From NCBI GenBank assembly GCA_016926255.1, contig JAFGOY010000011.1:70399-134398 (forward strand): a DNA stretch of 64,000 nucleotides, given 5' to 3'. Origin of the DNA: Anaerolineae bacterium. GTDB taxonomy: Bacteria; Chloroflexota; Anaerolineae; Aggregatilineales; UBA3940. The notes under the pieces were generated by a model that was given only the letters and a program-made list of their open reading frames with translations, was not told the origin of the DNA and ran no database searches. This document shows, one piece after another, positions 6,001 to 63,411 of this stretch; within the stretch, counting starts at the first letter, position 1; each line of letters opens with the position of its first letter. Both the position numbers and the translations under genes were made by a program.

Positions 6001-9000
6001 TTGCCAATATCCTGGCGATTGTCGGCGGCCTGGCAGATGACGTCCTCACCGGCGACAACGGCGATAACATTATCATCGGCAACGGCGGCAGCGACATCAT
6101 GACCGGCGGCACCGGGGCCGATATCTACGGTTTCGAAGATGGCTGGGGCATCAACGATCAAGTCATCGAAGCGACCTTCGGCGATGGTGATACATTTGAC
6201 TTCTCGGCACAGTACGCCGCGCTGACCTTCGACCTGCAAAGCCTTGACGGTACGTTCGCCAACTTCCAGGCAGCGGCGGTGGCGGTGGTCTTCACGATTT
6301 ACACGGTGGGCAGCGCGTTGGTCGCCACCGACTCGACCAATACGGTCACCCACAACGGCATCAACGTCGAAAACCTGATCGGCGGCACGGGAGACGACGA
6401 CTTCATCTTCCGCACTGACGGCGTTTTAGGCGGCACCATTCAGGGCTTCACCGGGCACGATACGCTCGATTACTCAGCTTACGATACCGCGCGCCTGCTG
6501 CATCTGACAGGGATCGGCACCAACGATGGATTCATGGGGCTTGACGAGACGTTGAGCGGGGCCAGCACCACCGGTTTCGACGACATCGACGAAATTGTCG
6601 GCACCGCCGAATACGACCGTCTGACCGGTCTTGACGAAATAGCTACCTGGACAGTCGATGGGACGAATACCTACGAAAGCAGCACACGCGATCTTGATTT
6701 CTCGGCCATTGACGAACTGTTCGGCGGCAACCAGGTTGATACTTTCATCGTTGACGGTGATCAGACGGAAGACCTGCGCGGTGGCCTGAATGCCGACATC
6801 TTCGTCTTCATGGACGACTCGCACCTGACCGGCAATGTCGATGGCAATTCAGGTGCCGACTGGCTTGACTTCTCCGACTACAACGACGACCTGACCGTCG
6901 TCCTGTGGACGGGTGAAGCCTACCAGACAACCGGCCCGGTCGGCGTGATCAACGACGGCAGCCCCGGCGGGTTCACCAATATCATGAACCTGATCGGCGG
7001 CCAGGGTGATGACATCCTGACCGGTGATGTGTGGAATAACATCATCGAGGGCCAGGGCGGAGCCGACCAGATCAACGGTATGGAAGGCAATGACACGCTG
7101 ATCGGCGGCGATGGCGACGACACCTACCACTTCCGGCCCGACTGGGGCGATGACGTGGTCACCGAAGCAGCAGGCGGCGGGAATGATACGCTCGACCTGT
7201 CGCTGATCGACGACCCTCTGACCTTCGAAATCTACGCAGGCCAGATATTTGTCAGCGACACGCTCGGCAACAGCATCGACCATACCCGCGCACCGCCCGA
7301 AATCGAGAACCTGATCGGTGGCCCGCAGGACGATACCTTCGTCTTCGTCGATGACGACCCCAACGCACGGATCACCGGCACGATAGACGGTCGCGGTCAC
7401 GTTCTGGGCGATACGCTCGATTACGTGAATTACACTACCACTGCCGTGACAGTCGACCTCTCCACCGGGGCAGCGACCCGCACCGGCGGCATTATCCTCG
7501 ACAGTGTTGAAAACATTATAGGCGGCGACCAGAACGATACGCTCACCGGCGATGATCGAGACAACGTGATCACCGGCGGCCCCGGCGATGACAGTATCGA
7601 CGGGCTCCTGGGCAGCGATACCTTCGACGAGAGTGCGGCCACCGGCCTCGACATGGTGGTGAACCTGATCACCGGCACCTCGACCGGGAACGGCTCGGAT
7701 ACCCTCGCCAGCATTGAGAACGTCATCACCAGCGATGGCAGTGACCAGATTACCGGCGACGACAACGACAACACGCTGAACGGCGGCGCGGGCGACGATA
7801 CCTACTTCTTCTACGACAACTTCGGCACCGACAGCATTGTCGAGGCAGTCGGCGGCGGCAACGATACGCTGAATTTCAGCAATTACACCACCGCCGGGGC
7901 GCTCGAATTTGCGATTGGAAACGGCACCATCGACGTCAGCGATACGCTGGGCAATAGCCTGGGCGGTGCGGTCGGCAACTTCGAGAACCTGGTCGGTAGC
8001 CAGACCGATGACCTGTTCGACTTTGGGCCGAATTCGGCGCTGACCGGCATGCTCGACGGCGCGGACGGCCACGACCGGTTCGATTACGCCGACTACCACA
8101 CCGCGATTACGGTCAATCTGGAAGACTCCTCGGCGACCGGTATTAACGGTGGGCTGGCGAACGGCTTCTTTAATATGGAAGGGCTGATCGGAACCACCGC
8201 CTACGACGACGAATTGATCGGTGAGAATATCGACACCCAGTGGACACAGACTGCACTCGATACGGGCACGCTCGACAGCGCCACCTACACCGCTTTCGAT
8301 TACACTGACATCGAGAACCTGACCAGCGGCAGCGCCGACGATACCCTTACCTTCTCCGGCTTCGCCACGCCGCGCAATGTTCTGATCTATGGTGCGGGCA
8401 CGGTCGATGGCTATCGCGGTACCGAAACCAGCATCTCCGGCCAGTTCGACAACATGGACACCGTCGACGCCGACAGCACCGACGACCTCCTGGTTGGTGA
8501 GGACACAGACAACGTGTGGACGATCACCGGGGTGAATGAGGGTGATCTCAACGGTGTCGCATTCTTCGGTATGGAGCACCTCCTGGGCGGCAGCCTGACC
8601 GACCGCTTCTTCTTCCAGAACGACGCGGCAGAGATTACCGGCACCATCACCGGTGGCGACGGTACCGACACGCTCGATTACGGCGGCACGGTCGCGGACG
8701 GCGTCACCTTTGACGTGACGATCAGCCTGGAAGACTTCTCGGCGACGGCGATCAACGGCGGGCTGGCGAATGGCTTCTCCGATATCGAGTATTTCTATGG
8801 CGGCGATGCCGACGACACGCTCATCAGCGCCAACGTATTTAACCAGTGGTACGTTTATGACACCGGGAGAGGGTCCGTTGCGGGGACAGTCTTCTGGTCG
8901 ATTGAGAACCTGGTCGGCGGCACTGACAGGGACGATCTCCGGTTTGAATATTACGGCTCCGGGCGTGACTTTGTCTTAACCGATTTTGGTACCGTCGACG

Positions 9001-57573: not shown

Positions 57574-59343
57574 CTAGAACATGCCGGTGATTTTCCCCGT
57601 CTCCAGATCGACGTCGATTTTCATATACGCAGGGCTGGTCGCCAGGCCGGGCATGGTGCTCATCGTCCCGATCAGCGGATAGATGAACCCCGCCCCCACG
57701 CTGGCGCGAACTTCGCGCACCGGGATGGTGTAGCCAGTGGGGACGCCCTTCAAAACCGGGTCGTGGCTCAGGCTGAGGTGAGTCTTTGCCATACAGATGG
57801 GGAGATTCCCGTAGCCGACCCGCTCGTAGGTCGCAATCTGCTCCTCGGCGAGCGGTTCATAATGAACATTCCCGGCACCGTACATTTTGGTAGCAATATG
57901 CTCGATCTTACGCTTGATCGACCAGTCCAGCGGGTAGAGGAACCTGAAATTACTCGGCTGTTCGCAGGCTTCGACGACCGCTTCGGCCAAGGCGCGTGCT
58001 CCTTTACCTCCTTCTGACCAGTGGGTGCTGCTGACGGCGGCAAAAGCGCCCCGATCTTTCGCATACTGGCTGACCATCTCGATCTCCGCGTCGGTGTCTT
58101 CAGAGAAGCGGTTGATGCACACCACCACCGGAATGCCAAAATACTTTGCATTTTTGATATGCGCGCCGAGGTTTGGCAGCCCGGATTCCAGCAGGGGAAG
58201 GTCTTCCTGGACATAGGCCGGGTCCAGAGGCGCACCGGGACGCACCTGCGGCCCGCCGCCGTGCATCTTCAAGGCGCGGACGGTGGCGACCAGCACAACC
58301 GCATTTGGCACCAGCCCGGAATAGCGGCACTTGATATCGAAGAATTTCTCCATGCCGATGTCGGCCCCAAAACCGCTTTCGGTGACGACGTAGTCGCCCA
58401 GCTTGAGGGCGATCATATCGGCGATGATCGACGAATTGCCGTGCGCGATGTTGGCAAATGGCCCGGTATGGATCAGCGCCGCCTGCCCCTCGAGGGTTTG
58501 CATCAGGGTGGGCATCAGCGCATCAAGCATCAGAGCGGTGACAGCCCCGGCCACGCCCAGATCGTCAAGTGTAATCGGTTCACCGGCATGGCTCAGACCG
58601 ATCATGGCACGCCCGACCCGCTCACGCAGGTCTTTGAGCGTGGCAGAGAGGGCGAGGATCGCCATCAATTCCGAGGCGACTGTGATGTCGAAGCCGGTCA
58701 GCCGGGGGAAGACCGGACTGGGCGAATCGTCGGCCAGCTTATCGTCATTGAGACCGATCTGGATGCTTCGCAGGCTCCGGTCGCAGACGTCGACAACCCG
58801 GTGCCAGGTGATCGAGTCCGGGTCGATGTCCAGCCGTTTGTCGATGCCGCGCCGCTTGAGAGCATCGTCGGACTGGCGGCTTTCGTGATACATTCGGGTG
58901 TCGATGGCCGCTGCGACAAGGTTGTTTGCCACGCCAATCGCATGCAGGTCGCCAGTCAGGTGCAGGTTGAAATCCTCCATCGGGATCACCTGGCTGTAGC
59001 CACCACCCGCCGCCCCGCCCTTGATGTTGAAGGTCGGCCCCATGCTTGGCTGGCGGATGCAGGCGATGGCCTTTTTCCCAAGCTCCGATCCCAGGGCCTG
59101 AACCAGCCCCAGTGTGGTTGTCGTTTTGCCTTCACCCAAGGGCGTGGGAGTGATCGCGGTTACGTCTATGTATTTGCCCTGGGGATTACCGGCGAACTTC
59201 TGAAGAACGCCAAGGTGAATTTTAGCCTTGTTCCGCCCGTACAATTCCAGATCGTCTTCGGACAGCTCTATCTTCTCCGCAATGGCGATGATCGGGCTGA
59301 TTTTCGCAGCCTGGGCTATATCTATGTCGCTGGGAATACTCAT
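57574..59343 (-). CDS. fhs: Formate-tetrahydrofolate ligase
   Basis: [44 protein letters not shown] and CMAKTHLS motifs. Confidence 0.97.
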
Positions 59344-59392
59344 CGGAAGCTGCTCCTTACAAACTTACCGGACAATAAACCAGATGCCGGTA

Positions 59393-59696
59393 TTTGAAAA
59401 TGTTCAAAACTCACCCCAAAATGTTCAAAACTGGCTTGAAAATGTTGAAAGATTGTCGAAAACTTTTCAACATTTGTTGAAAGTTTTCCGGGTTTTCAAC
59501 AATTCACCCTCGACTTTCAACAATTTATCAACAATGGTGAAGCAGTCAATTGTTGAAAGATCACCCCTACATATGGGGGATAAGTGACCTCCCCACCCCC
59601 ACATATAGGGGTCAGAAGGCAACTTTCAACAATTTCAACAATGCCTACTACTAAATACTAAAATAATAATATAGATGTGATCATGAATTTTGAACA
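59393..59696. other. Putative chromosomal replication origin (oriC)
   Basis: AT-rich intergenic region with about 13 YTTTCAACA/TTATCAACA-like 9-mers in both orientations. It ends in CTTTCAACA-ATTTCAACA-ATGCC-TACTACTAAATACTAAAATAATAAT (box pair, spacer, DnaA-trio-like run). Confidence 0.75.
59564..59611. promoter_or_regulatory. Tandem NrdR-box-like palindromes
   Basis: CCCCTACATATGGGGG (59564-59579) and CCCCCACATATAGGGG (59596-59611), 32 bp start-to-start. Confidence 0.6.
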
Positions 59697-59751
59697 TTCA
59701 GATTTGAGAAAAGTTCTTATCAATCATCTACTGCAAAGATAGCAAAGGAAT

Positions 59752-60486
59752 CTACTCATTGCGCAGATCACGCGTCAGCGGGACGAAGCGCACCCCACCC
59801 AGGCTGATGTTGGTATAGTCATCACCCTCTCGTTCGACGAGCCAGAGTTCCTGATAACCACCCACCGGGCCGACTGGGATCACCATTTTGCCGCCGTCTT
59901 TTAACTGGGTGAGCAGCGGCGGTGGAATGTGATCGGGTGCGGCGGTAACGATAATTGCATCGAAGGGAGCGTGATCCTCCCAGCCGAAATAGCCATCGTC
60001 ATGAAGCACTTCGACATTGGTATAGCCAAGCCGATCAAGTCGATCTCCGGCCTGCTCCGCCAGCGCGCCGACGATCTCGATGGTATAGACCCTGTCGACG
60101 ATTTCGGCCAGCACCGCTGCCTGGTAACCTGATCCCGTACCGACTTCGAGGATCACATCACTCTCGTCCGGGTTAAGGGCGTCGGTCATCAGAGCGACAA
60201 TATAGGGCTGCGAGATCGTCTGGCCGTAGCCAATCGGTAGCGGGTGATCGGCGTAAGCCTGCGCCAGATAGTCGTCGGGTACGAACTCGTGGCGCGGGAC
60301 GGCATTCATCGCCTCGATCACTGCGGGGGTGGTGATCCCCCGCCCGACGATGGCTTCTTCAACGAGCGCCTCGCGGGCCGCGCTGTAGGAATCCTCGTTC
60401 GGAGCTTCGTCTGCTTTTTCTTTTGTTTTGCAGGCGGTGGCGATCAGGAGAAGCAGTATAGCGGCGGTGATCAGTTTGCCTCGCAT
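59752..60486 (-). CDS. pcm: Protein-L-isoaspartate O-methyltransferase with a putative lipoprotein signal peptide
   Basis: VPRHEFV, GQTISQP, LEVGTGSGYQAA, APFDAIIVTAA and VRFVPL motifs; N-terminus MRGKLITAAILLLLIATA-C. Confidence 0.9.
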   Translation of the reverse strand: MRGKLITAAILLLLIATACKTKEKADEAPNEDSYSAAREALVEEAIVGRGITTPAVIEAMNAVPRHEFVPDDYLAQAYADHPLPIGYGQTISQPYIVALMTDALNPDESDVILEVGTGSGYQAAVLAEIVDRVYTIEIVGALAEQAGDRLDRLGYTNVEVLHDDGYFGWEDHAPFDAIIVTAAPDHIPPPLLTQLKDGGKMVIPVGPVGGYQELWLVEREGDDYTNISLGGVRFVPLTRDLRNE

Positions 60487-60585: not shown

Positions 60586-60612
60586 GAGTTGTTTTTAGCC
60601 TGGAGGGTGAGA

Positions 60613-63411
60613 ATGTCTGAGCATACCGGCAAACGATTGGTTCTGATCGACGGGCATGGGCTGGCCTACCGGATGTTTTACGCAATTCAGGCCGGAATGT
60701 CCACACGGGCCGGTGAGCCGACCAACGCGACCTACGGTTTTACCCGCCAGGTTCTGAGCCTGATCACCAGCGACGATCCGCCGGACTACCTTGCCGTCAG
60801 CTTCGACGTTGGAAAGACCTTCCGCGATGAGATGTTCGACGATTACAAAGCCACCCGCGAGAAGATGCCCGACGACCTGAGCTTGCAGATCGGGCGAATA
60901 CAGCAGGTGCTCGACGCGCTGAATGTCCCTCACATCGAAATCGAGGGCTATGAAGCCGACGACGTGCTGGGGACAGTCGCGCGGCTGGCCGGGGAGATGG
61001 GTGTCGAAACGCTGATCATTACCGGTGACAAAGACCTGCTGCAACTGGTCAACGAGCATACGCTGGTGCAGCTTCCGGGCCGCAAATCGGGGGAGGACGA
61101 GGTTTACGACATTGATGCCGTGCGGGAGAAAATGGGGATCGCCCCGGCGCAGATTGTCGATTATAAGGCGCTGGTGGGCGACAAATCAGACAATATTCCA
61201 GGCGTGGCCGGTATTGGGGACAAATCGGCAGTATCGCTGCTGAACGAGTACGGCAGTGTGCAGGCGATCTACGAGAACCTCGACGCGATCTCCAGCACCC
61301 GCGCCCGCAATGCATTGATCGGACAGGAAGAGAACGCCGATCTCAGCTACCGGCTGGCGAAGATCGTTACCGACGTGCCGCTCGAATTCGATCTAGAAGC
61401 CTGCCACACGCAGGATTTCGATGTGGATCAGGTGGCGGAAATCTTCCAGGAACTGGAGTTCCGCTCGTTCCTGCGACAGATTCGGGGGACGGATGTTGAG
61501 GCTGCTTCCCCTGCCCCCGGACAGCAGCTTTCCCTTTTCGGCGGAATGATGGGTATCGATGCACCTGCGGCGTCAAACGAATCGGTGACGGAGACACATA
61601 TCATCCGTGACGAAGCGGCGCTCGACGCGCTGGTCAAACGGCTGAACGGCGTAAGGGAAATCGCTTTCGACACAGAAACCACGTCGACCGACCAGATGCA
61701 GGCGCGGCTGGTCGGGATTTCGCTGGCAGTCGAGCCGGGCGAGGCGTATTACATCCCGGTCGGGCACAGCCTGAGTGACGAAGTTCAACTGCCGCTCGAC
61801 CTGGTTATTAAGAAGCTGACACCCCCAATGACCAACCCGGATATCGTCAAGATTGGGCACAACATCAAGTACGACGCGGTGGTGCTGGAACGGCACGGCC
61901 TTAGCGTCACCCCGTTGAGCGTCGATACGATGATCGGCGAATGGCTGCTGCACCCGGAAGCCAGGCTGGGCTTGAAGGCGCTTGCCTTTTCCCTGCTGGG
62001 CGTCGAGATGACCGAGATCAGCGATTTGATCGGCAAGGGAGCCAGGCAGATTACATTCGACCTTGTGCCGGTCGAGCAGGGAGCAGCTTATGCTGCCGCC
62101 GATGCCGACATGACGCTGCGTCTCTCCGAGCCGATACGGGCGGAGATCGAAGAGCAGGAGATTGGAAAGCTGTTCTACGAGATCGAGATGCCGCTGGTCG
62201 GGGTGCTATCGGCGATGGAGCAGGCCGGGGTGCTGGTCGATGTAGGCTTCCTCGAAAATCTGTCGGCAGAACTGGGCGAGCAGTTGGGCGACCGGGTTCG
62301 GCAGGTTTATGAGATCGTGGGCTATGACTTCAACCTCAACTCGACGCAGCAGTTGAGCGATGCGCTGTTCAAGAACCTTCAACTCCCAACGCAGGGATTA
62401 CGCAAGACCAAGAGCGGTCACTACTCGACCGCCGCCGACGTGCTCGAAGGGCTGCGCGATCAGGATACCACCGGCGTGATCGAGGCGATTCTCGACTACC
62501 GCGAGATGGAAAAGCTCCGCTCGACCTACCTCGATGCGCTGCCGCAGCTTGTCAACCCGGAGACGGGACGAATCCACACCTCGTTCAACCAGACGGGGAC
62601 GGTCACCGGGCGGATCAGCTCCAGCGATCCGAATCTGCAAAACATCCCGATCCGCAGCGAGGTGGGCCGCCGGGTGCGTGAGGCTTTTGTCGCCGCGTCG
62701 GGCCATATGCTGATCGGCGCGGACTATTCACAGGTCGAGCTGCGGGTGATGGCGCACATGGCCGATGATCCGGCGCTGCGGCAGGCGTTCCTGGATGATC
62801 AGGACATCCACGCCACGACCGCCGCAACGGTGTTCAACATTCCCCTGAACGAGGTGACGCCCAACCAGCGCAGTTTCGCCAAGGCGGTAAACTTCGGGCT
62901 GATGTACGGCATGGGGGCTTTCCGGCTGGCACGGGACTCGGAACTGACGCTGTCCGAGTCCGAGGCATTCATCAAGACCTACTTCGAACGGTTCCCAAAA
63001 GTGCGGGAATACCTCGACGGGACGCGCAGGCAGGCCGCTGAATGTGGTTATGTCGAGACACTGCTGGGGCGTCGGCGGTACTTCCCGATCCTGTCCTCGA
63101 CCGACACCAGCCAGCGGGCAAACATCGAGCGGCGGGCGGCGGAGCGCGAAGCGGTCAACATGCCGATCCAGGGCACTGCTGCTGACATCATCAAGATTGC
63201 GATGATCAGGCTGCATGATGCGCTGCGTGATCGCGGACTGAGCGGGCAAATGCTGATCCAGGTACATGACGAGCTAATCCTCGAAGCGCCGGAAGACGAG
63301 ATCGAAGAGACGGCGGCGCTGGTCAAAAATGTAATGGAGAACGCGTACCCGCTTTCGGTGCCGCTCAAGGTCGATGCGCATGTCGGAGAGAACTGGGGCG
63401 AGTTGAAGTAA
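60613..63411 (+). CDS. polA: DNA polymerase I
   Basis: 5'-exonuclease (LIDGH, YEADD), 3'-exonuclease (FDTET), polymerase (DYSQVELR, AKAVNFGLMYG, QVHDEL); ATG at 60613 with a GGAGG RBS. Confidence 0.98.
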   Translation: MSEHTGKRLVLIDGHGLAYRMFYAIQAGMSTRAGEPTNATYGFTRQVLSLITSDDPPDYLAVSFDVGKTFRDEMFDDYKATREKMPDDLSLQIGRIQQVLDALNVPHIEIEGYEADDVLGTVARLAGEMGVETLIITGDKDLLQLVNEHTLVQLPGRKSGEDEVYDIDAVREKMGIAPAQIVDYKALVGDKSDNIPGVAGIGDKSAVSLLNEYGSVQAIYENLDAISSTRARNALIGQEENADLSYRLAKIVTDVPLEFDLEACHTQDFDVDQVAEIFQELEFRSFLRQIRGTDVEAASPAPGQQLSLFGGMMGIDAPAASNESVTETHIIRDEAALDALVKRLNGVREIAFDTETTSTDQMQARLVGISLAVEPGEAYYIPVGHSLSDEVQLPLDLVIKKLTPPMTNPDIVKIGHNIKYDAVVLERHGLSVTPLSVDTMIGEWLLHPEARLGLKALAFSLLGVEMTEISDLIGKGARQITFDLVPVEQGAAYAAADADMTLRLSEPIRAEIEEQEIGKLFYEIEMPLVGVLSAMEQAGVLVDVGFLENLSAELGEQLGDRVRQVYEIVGYDFNLNSTQQLSDALFKNLQLPTQGLRKTKSGHYSTAADVLEGLRDQDTTGVIEAILDYREMEKLRSTYLDALPQLVNPETGRIHTSFNQTGTVTGRISSSDPNLQNIPIRSEVGRRVREAFVAASGHMLIGADYSQVELRVMAHMADDPALRQAFLDDQDIHATTAATVFNIPLNEVTPNQRSFAKAVNFGLMYGMGAFRLARDSELTLSESEAFIKTYFERFPKVREYLDGTRRQAAECGYVETLLGRRRYFPILSSTDTSQRANIERRAAEREAVNMPIQGTAADIIKIAMIRLHDALRDRGLSGQMLIQVHDELILEAPEDEIEETAALVKNVMENAYPLSVPLKVDAHVGENWGELK

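Follow-up and report, generated by a model that had tools for sequence, protein, structure and literature searches.

The intergenic region at positions 59344..59751 of the window (the whole stretch of 64,000 nucleotides analysed here, corresponding to C23:70399-134398) is very probably the chromosomal oriC of an uncultured Anaerolineales bacterium (Chloroflexota), with a lineage-specific DnaA box and without linkage to dnaA or dnaN. The draft genome (G000) comprises 4.61 Mb in 82 contigs and is 96% complete. The region has an ordered architecture of DnaA boxes and unwinding module, is unique within the genome and is conserved in relatives, and position 6 of the box covaries with residue 433 of DnaA. 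DnaA is predicted to bind the region and to unwind DNA there, and one or another of its changed contact residues would have shifted the specificity. The kind of system, a basal unwinding system like that of Bacillus subtilis, is known; the box variant is new. An earlier note on the same DNA, made from the letters only, had read the region as a probable oriC, and this reading is supported by the finding of a genome-unique, non-coding module that is conserved across genera.

The candidate oriC is a 408-bp gap between the start of fhs (formate-tetrahydrofolate ligase; 57574-59343, minus strand; PF01268, E 2.6e-248) and the stop of pcm (protein-L-isoaspartate O-methyltransferase; 59752-60486, minus strand; PF01135, E 2.9e-62). 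Beyond pcm lies polA (60589-63411, plus strand), and a Yip1-domain protein and a HhH-GPD glycosylase are encoded by other neighbours. The genes beside the box array include no rep, integrase or mobile gene. The profile matches agree with the flanking genes named in the earlier note, fhs and pcm and not dnaA/dnaN; both of the latter are located on other contigs. Since fhs is encoded on the minus strand and starts at the edge of the gap, its promoter must fall within the candidate origin region. The other end of the window is occupied by a giant plus-strand ORF of about 40.5 kb on C23 (around 62-103 kb; window 3-31538, running off the 5' end). The encoded product, of 10,511 aa or more, contains RTX calcium-binding repeats and a C-terminal domain of the serralysin type. 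The ORF shows a higher G+C content (~0.62) and a negative GC skew relative to its surroundings.

Thirteen nine-mers with at most one mismatch to TTTTCAACA are contained in about 300 bp of the 408-bp gap. They start at 59401, 59422, 59443, 59454, 59464, 59475, 59493, 59514, 59525, 59551, 59623, 59632 and 59688, and all of them had been listed in the earlier note at these same starts. None is canonical, position 6 being A in 12 boxes, G in one and the canonical C in none, which agrees with the previous observation that most have A at this position. The variant word keeps seven of the nine positions of the canonical box TTATCCACA, the main difference being the change from C to A at position 6. 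In the 64-kb window, TTTTCAACA with at most one mismatch was found 29 times (6.59 expected), a count reached by none of 100 shuffles. Strict YTTTCAACA occurs eight times in the window (0.58 expected), and seven of these copies lie within 59443-59631. The canonical word TTATCCACA (at most one mismatch) is at chance level in the window, with 7 matches found and 7.19 expected, and its sole match within the box region is TTATCAACA at 59525.

Most of the boxes fall into two arrays. The left array (59401..59483) is composed of minus-strand boxes starting at 59401, 59422, 59443, 59454 and 59475 and a plus-strand box starting at 59464, with start-to-start spacings of 21, 21, 11, 10 and 11 bp. The right array (59493..59559) is composed of plus-strand boxes starting at 59493, 59514 and 59525, spaced by 21 and 11 bp, and a minus-strand box starting at 59551. 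A single DnaA is predicted to bind the approximately 13 boxes, with the consensus (T/C)TTT(C/G)AACA, via its domain IV, and the distances of 11 or 21 bp would place the bound DnaA on one face of the helix.

The right array is followed by two GC-armed near-palindromes, CCCCTACATATGGGGG (59564..59579), a candidate operator, and CCCCCACATATAGGGG (59596..59611), located 32 bp from the first. Next come two abutting, co-oriented plus-strand boxes, CTTTCAACA and ATTTCAACA (59623..59640), which form a putative anchor for basal unwinding, a 4-bp spacer ATGC (59641..59644), and three DnaA-trios on the minus strand (59645..59653). The trios read CTA CTA CTA on the top strand and therefore 3'-GAT GAT GAT-5' on the bottom strand. 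Between the end of the upstream tandem box and the first trio there are 13 bp. The sequence continues after the trios with AAT..., which gives the tail the order CTTTCAACA-ATTTCAACA-ATGC-CTACTACTA-AAT. The AT-rich candidate unwinding element at 59651..59691 is the least stable 40-step stretch of the 64-kb window (rank 1); genome-wide there are 132 equally unstable, overlapping 40-step stretches, or 2.9e-5 of all. A distal plus-strand box, TTTTGAACA (59688..59696), is located past the AT-rich stretch, and a box in this place is also present in G001, G012, G014 and G010.

A basal unwinding system is defined in PMC8287927 as a DnaA box, single or tandem, together with trios of the type 3'-NAN-5', preferably GAT. 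The methods of the same paper specify at least three trios with a middle A and a spacer of 0-16 bp, the commonest spacer being 13 bp. Each of these parts is found at 59623-59653, in the form of tandem boxes, ATGC and three bottom-strand GAT trios. In the proposed mechanism, the abutting boxes at 59623-59640 would anchor a DnaA-ATP oligomer, which would span the 4-bp spacer onto the three 3'-GAT-5' trios (59645-53) and, once on the trios, would open the AT-rich stretch at about 59651-59691.

The pattern of the near-palindromes, CCCC-N-A-N-A-T-N-T-N-GGGG, occurs at six places in G000. Two of these are the copies in the candidate origin, 32 bp apart, and two are located upstream of dnaA, 31 bp apart (C6:8316 and 8347; span 8316-8362). 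Paired palindromes 31-32 bp apart were found in G000 only in the candidate origin and in the dnaA upstream region. The sister species has one copy of the palindrome at the origin and another 334 bp upstream of dnaA; G012 has it at the origin and G018 about 850 bp upstream of dnaA. It is possible that one factor binds both palindrome sites, which would constitute a putative shared operator. The remaining two pattern matches in G000 are copies of a different repeat, the dispersed 16-mer CCCCCAAATCTGGGGG (C40:6014 and C59:28190), of which eight copies were observed in G001. This 16-mer could represent a terminator stem or a small repeat element.

The search for variant-box clusters suggested in the earlier note was performed genome-wide and returned 13 matches to TTTTCAACA (at most one mismatch) per 400 bp at the candidate origin and at most four elsewhere. 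The runner-up "cluster" with four matches, at C48:26770, was rejected, as it consists of TTTTTAACA-type AT-rich DNA with no real boxes. The 8-mer TTTCAACA has 175 copies genome-wide, with eight within 500 bp here and at most two in any other 500-bp stretch. For TTATCCACA, TTTTCCACA, TTGTCCACA and TTATCAACA, no 400-bp stretch of the genome contains more than three matches; the genome-wide maximum for TTTTCGACA is five per 400 bp, at C39:83851. The dnaA gene is located on C6 (6595-8028, minus strand, 477 aa), dnaN on C9 and the candidate origin on C23. No box cluster adjoins dnaA or dnaN, and the 660-bp region upstream of dnaA contains one weak box. A canonical cluster beside dnaA, which the earlier note had named as an argument against its own reading, was looked for and not found, and the 96%-complete draft contains no canonical-box cluster elsewhere. 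The candidate origin is not of the dnaA/dnaN-linked type (rpmH-dnaA-dnaN). As the draft is 96% complete and consists of 82 contigs, a second cluster may be hidden in an unassembled part.

By DNA similarity, the gap was recognized in 7 of the 18 further genomes of its family and in none of 12 genomes from seven other families of the order. The seven similar loci contain 10-21 boxes, organized as a minus-strand array followed by a plus-strand array with spacings of 11 and 21 bp, and have two boxes 8-9 bp apart at one end. Of 22 family genomes, 21 match a triple phased-box pattern and 2 a control pattern. Tandem boxes with a short GC-containing spacer and C-T-A-C-T-A are present in 8 of the 12 family loci examined. 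In other families the module occurs with different box words in three of the seven loci examined, namely as TTGTCAACA-TATCGACA-gcgc-CTACTAC in G028, as TTATCCACA-TATCCACA-ggct-CTACTAC in G024 and as TTATCAACA-g-TTTTCAACA-ccc, followed by five CTA, in G087; a fourth of these loci (G030) has tandem boxes without trios. That the module is kept while the box word drifts supports the module as the conserved core of bacterial origins. Among the matches listed for the 121 genomes of the order, there is usually one such cluster per genome.

The genomic context of the cluster is variable. The fhs gene adjoins it in the sister species only, and the flanks differ between genera, the neighbours in other genera being a CHASE2 cyclase and an acyl-CoA dehydrogenase, methyltransferases, or a hydantoinase. 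Where cluster and dnaA share a single contig, their distance is 182 kb in G005, 0.9 Mb in G087 and 1.0 Mb in G093. Distances of 0.14 to 1.0 Mb on single contigs were observed for G087:C3, G093:C3, G065:C2 and G049:C6, and boxes within about 0.6 kb of dnaA were observed in G100, G066, G055, G070, G080, G104, G021 and G027. As the cluster is far from dnaA in some families and near it in others, the linkage has been either repeatedly broken or patchily retained.

The earlier note had also proposed cumulative GC skew as a check. On the contig of the window no switch is seen at the site: the raw cumulative skew has no extremum near 129.9 kb, the skews computed separately for the two gene strands move in opposite senses at the site with no sign change, and after correction for transcription the skew is positive from 105 to 150 kb, on either side of the site. 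The skew of this contig is dominated by local effects. Two near-complete relatives were sampled in addition. In G087 (family f8; forty 20-kb pieces from a 3.68-Mb contig), transcription has an effect of 0.044 on the skew, roughly double the replication-like effect of 0.024. When a single step is fitted, its best position is 2.10-2.15 Mb (RSS 1811), beside dnaA at 2.093 Mb, with a second local optimum at 1.10-1.15 Mb (RSS 1874), the fit with no switch giving 2073. The corrected cumulative minimum lies between the samples at 1.08 and 1.17 Mb, and the box cluster is located at 1.184 Mb; near dnaA of G087 there is no box cluster (at most three boxes per 400 bp). In G093 (family f5; twenty pieces), where the cluster is located at 2.4055 Mb and dnaA at 3.436 Mb, a weak skew signal has its cumulative minimum at the samples at 2.07-2.37 Mb, at a distance of 0.02-0.33 Mb to the cluster. 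A skew minimum at the site is loosely compatible with these relatives: the cumulative minimum of G087 is indeed near the cluster, but the step fit of G087 is best near dnaA and the signal of G093 is weak. The skew in the relatives gives weak support to the site; the own contig gives none. The partition markers were uninformative on the position of the origin: no ParB N-terminal domain was found in the 96%-complete draft, nor any parS-like site with fewer than two mismatches to the consensus.

These results bear on the possibility that the boxes form a DnaA titration or regulation cluster (like datA or DARS of E. coli), or serve the control of fhs, and that the true oriC is located elsewhere, for example in an unassembled gap. 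In favour of this, the site is not beside dnaA or dnaN, the own contig has no skew switch, the fhs promoter must lie in the region, and the assembly is 96% complete. We consider this explanation unlikely, however, because the genome contains no other box cluster of any tested type, and because the full module is present, with tandem boxes, 13-bp spacer, three trios and the least stable DNA. We know of no titration site that needs an unwinding module. The usual number of one cluster per genome, among the matches listed for the 121 genomes of the order, also argues against this explanation.

One full-length DnaA, with DnaA_N, AAA+ and Bac_DnaA_C domains, is encoded in G000 and is the predicted reader of the boxes. 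Its nearest named relatives (37-48% identity) are nearly all from Chloroflexota, the majority being MAGs of Anaerolineales or Anaerolineaceae. Weak Bac_DnaA hits at C6:87 kb were considered as a second DnaA and rejected, as they belong to a double IstB/DnaC-like ATPase. The protein concerned (C6:86720-88042; L002:1204-2526) has 440 aa and two tandem IstB/DnaC-like AAA+ modules, and could be helicase-loader-like.

The base-specific contacts of E. coli DnaA are given as R399, P423, D433, H434, T435 and H439 in passages of PMC2533591 and PMC7561715, according to which B. subtilis DnaA keeps all six. In the alignment to B. subtilis DnaA (8btg, E 1.6e-98), four of the six contacts are changed in G000 (P423Q, D433N, T435S and H439Y), and the equivalents of Arg399 and His434 are retained. 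None of the 17 DnaAs examined from the family has Asp433 (13 have Asn, three Ser and one His); Ser435 and Tyr439 are present in all 17 and Gln423 in 11. Asp433 is kept in 80 of 80 named-locus DnaAs (other Chloroflexota, some Bacillota, some Omnitrophota), and an excerpt of PMC8235120 describes D433 as highly conserved in all classes. The specificity change may be due to residue 433 or to another of the changed contacts, since the same excerpt of PMC8235120 assigns the D433 contacts to box position 7, not 6. According to PMC5742627, 5'-TnCACA-3' is recognized by the helix 434-451 from the major groove and 5'-TTA-3' by Arg399 from the minor groove; position 6 thus falls in the part read by the changed residues. 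Tyr439 was considered as the cause of T at box position 3 and rejected, because L066, L036, L045 and L057 combine Tyr439 with TTATCCACA boxes near dnaA.

A DnaA tree was calculated from 47 rows, of which 30 were genomes of the order and 17 were taken from the 80 named loci, 63 of these being left out. In this tree family f1, to which G000 belongs, forms a monophyletic group (100/100), and Ser433 appears at no fewer than two separate places inside it. The deep nodes are weakly placed, so that independent losses of Asp433 are not countable. In G092 (family f2), two DnaA-type signatures were observed in one bin, with Asn433 (C23) and Asp433 (C42); the second signature could be a paralogue or contamination.

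For the comparison of residue 433 with box position 6, DnaA signatures were collected with a back-translated pattern, which matched in 97 of the 121 genomes of the order, and box words with the triple-box pattern, which matched in 96 of the 121. The tallies were read by eye from the matches listed and from further loci; the genomes are related, and the counts are therefore not independent. Among the matches listed, 16 genomes have Asp433, of which 15 have mostly C at position 6 and one (G024) is mixed C/A. Another 51 genomes among the matches listed lack Asp433; 42 of these have mostly A, G or T at position 6, four are mixed and five have mostly C, namely G019, G050 and G071 (Asn), G083 (Thr) and G085 (Ala). 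The boxes of G083 and G085 have G at position 5.

The individual residues are paired with particular words. Asn433 pairs with TATCAACA or TATGAACA (10 genomes, family f8) or with TTTCAACA (family f1). Ser433 together with Ser435 pairs with TATCGACA (G070, G115 and G112, and G015 within f1), and together with Thr435 it pairs with TTTTGAACA (G051, G062, G093 and G072). Lys433 is found with TATCTACA in G081 and partly in G022, and Thr433 with TATCGACA in G028. Within f1, G at position 6 was counted in 16 of 41 boxes of the three Ser433 genomes, versus 4 of 118 boxes of the nine Asn433 genomes. The residue-to-base rule is imperfect, as the Asn433 genomes of f2 are mixed and three of them have mostly C. 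That position 6 varies with DnaA residue 433 points to DnaA as the reader of the boxes. Together with the four changed contact residues, the covariation suggests that the specificity of DnaA domain IV has shifted, as the earlier note had supposed.

The covariation also speaks against the proposal that the boxes serve a protein other than DnaA, whether as iterons belonging to an integrated plasmid or phage replicon or as an array for a transcription factor. Like iterons, the repeats are short and phased, and their word departs from the canonical DnaA box; yet position 6 changes together with DnaA residue 433 and seven of the nine positions of TTATCCACA are kept. Moreover, no rep, integrase or mobile gene adjoins the array, its neighbours being fhs, pcm and polA, and in different genera it is found in different housekeeping contexts. 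We regard this proposal as very improbable. That the gap is a chance or low-complexity AT-rich spacer without function, as the AT-richness of intergenic DNA relative to the genome might suggest, is effectively refuted by the shuffles (0 of 100 reach the observed counts) and by the conservation of the array across genera.

Comparable cases were looked for in the literature. Neither TTTTCAACA nor TGTTGAAAA was linked to DnaA boxes in this search, the single match being unrelated in topic. In titles and abstracts, a paired change of Asp433 and position 6 was not found described, and those on DnaA and oriC of Chloroflexi/Anaerolinea contained nothing on box specificity. Tentatively, the Anaerolineales may be viewed as a natural experiment, in which Asp433 was replaced several times (by N, S, T, K, A and H) and all origin boxes followed at position 5/6 according to a code Asp-C, Asn-A, Ser-G and Lys-T, and in which an undescribed factor, marked by the palindrome that oriC and the dnaA promoter of this genus have in common, would couple origin firing to initiator synthesis. 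This wider reading is a serious possibility, on which our doubts slightly prevail. The pairing of residue 433 and position 6 within one order offers a direct and cheap test of DnaA box reading. Origin finders that assume TTATCCACA beside dnaA would misplace the origins in this large, mostly uncultured group, and growth-rate estimates for its members from metagenome coverage (peak-to-trough ratios) depend on correct origins.

Among known systems, the tail of the candidate origin is comparable to the basal unwinding system of B. subtilis oriC (incC), with DnaA-box#6/#7 (PMC6669920, PMC8287927, PMC10721633). In both, a pair of abutting, co-oriented boxes is followed by a 4-bp spacer, by 3'-GAT-5' trios whose strand relative to the boxes is the same, and by AT-rich DNA, and 13 bp separate the upstream box from the first trio. 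In the PMC8287927 supplement the B. subtilis entry is printed 3'-to-5' as box, box, CCGG, GAT GAT AAT GAA GAT GAT, and on the TTATCCACA-reading strand it becomes box, box, GGCC, CTA CTA TTA.... The parallel to B. subtilis drawn in the earlier note holds for order, orientation and spacing of this entry. The trio region of C. difficile also starts with C-C-T-A-C-T-A-C-T-A, as given in a passage of PMC7561715. The DoriC-based entry for Anaerolinea thermophila is a weak match, with two mismatches, a 16-bp spacer and a low trio score (PMC8287927 supplement). Unlike in B. subtilis, the box word here is YTTTCAACA and not TTATCCACA, the candidate origin is not located between dnaA and dnaN, no more than three perfect trios follow one another, and two GC-armed near-palindromes lie between the main box array and the unwinding module.

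The cyanobacterial box is TTTTCCACA and the actinobacterial box is TTGTCCACA. Epsilonproteobacterial boxes have T at position 5, as described in PMC5043019. The boxes of these three lineages resemble the present one in differing little from TTATCCACA, a difference that the literature relates to variation in domain IV helix 5. They differ in that C is kept at position 6, whereas here Asp433 is replaced and position 6 is changed. Thermotoga maritima has a 12-mer box, AAACCTACCACC, and substitutions in domain IV change the specificity, according to a passage of PMC6669920; T. maritima domain IV was also placed in a B. subtilis DnaA chimera in that paper, with boxes #6/#7 rewritten. As in T. maritima, DnaA domain IV and box are changed together here, and T. 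maritima is also without Asp at 433 (alignment to 2z4r); unlike in T. maritima, the box remains a 9-mer with seven of nine canonical positions. As the change described here differs from family to family among close relatives within a single order, its steps can be traced one by one. The oriC of E. coli is located between gidA/mnmG and mioC, about 40 kb from dnaA. The candidate origin resembles it in being a chromosomal origin unlinked to dnaA, and differs from it in the larger distances between origin and dnaA that are found in the relatives (182 kb in G005, 0.9 Mb in G087 and 1.0 Mb in G093).
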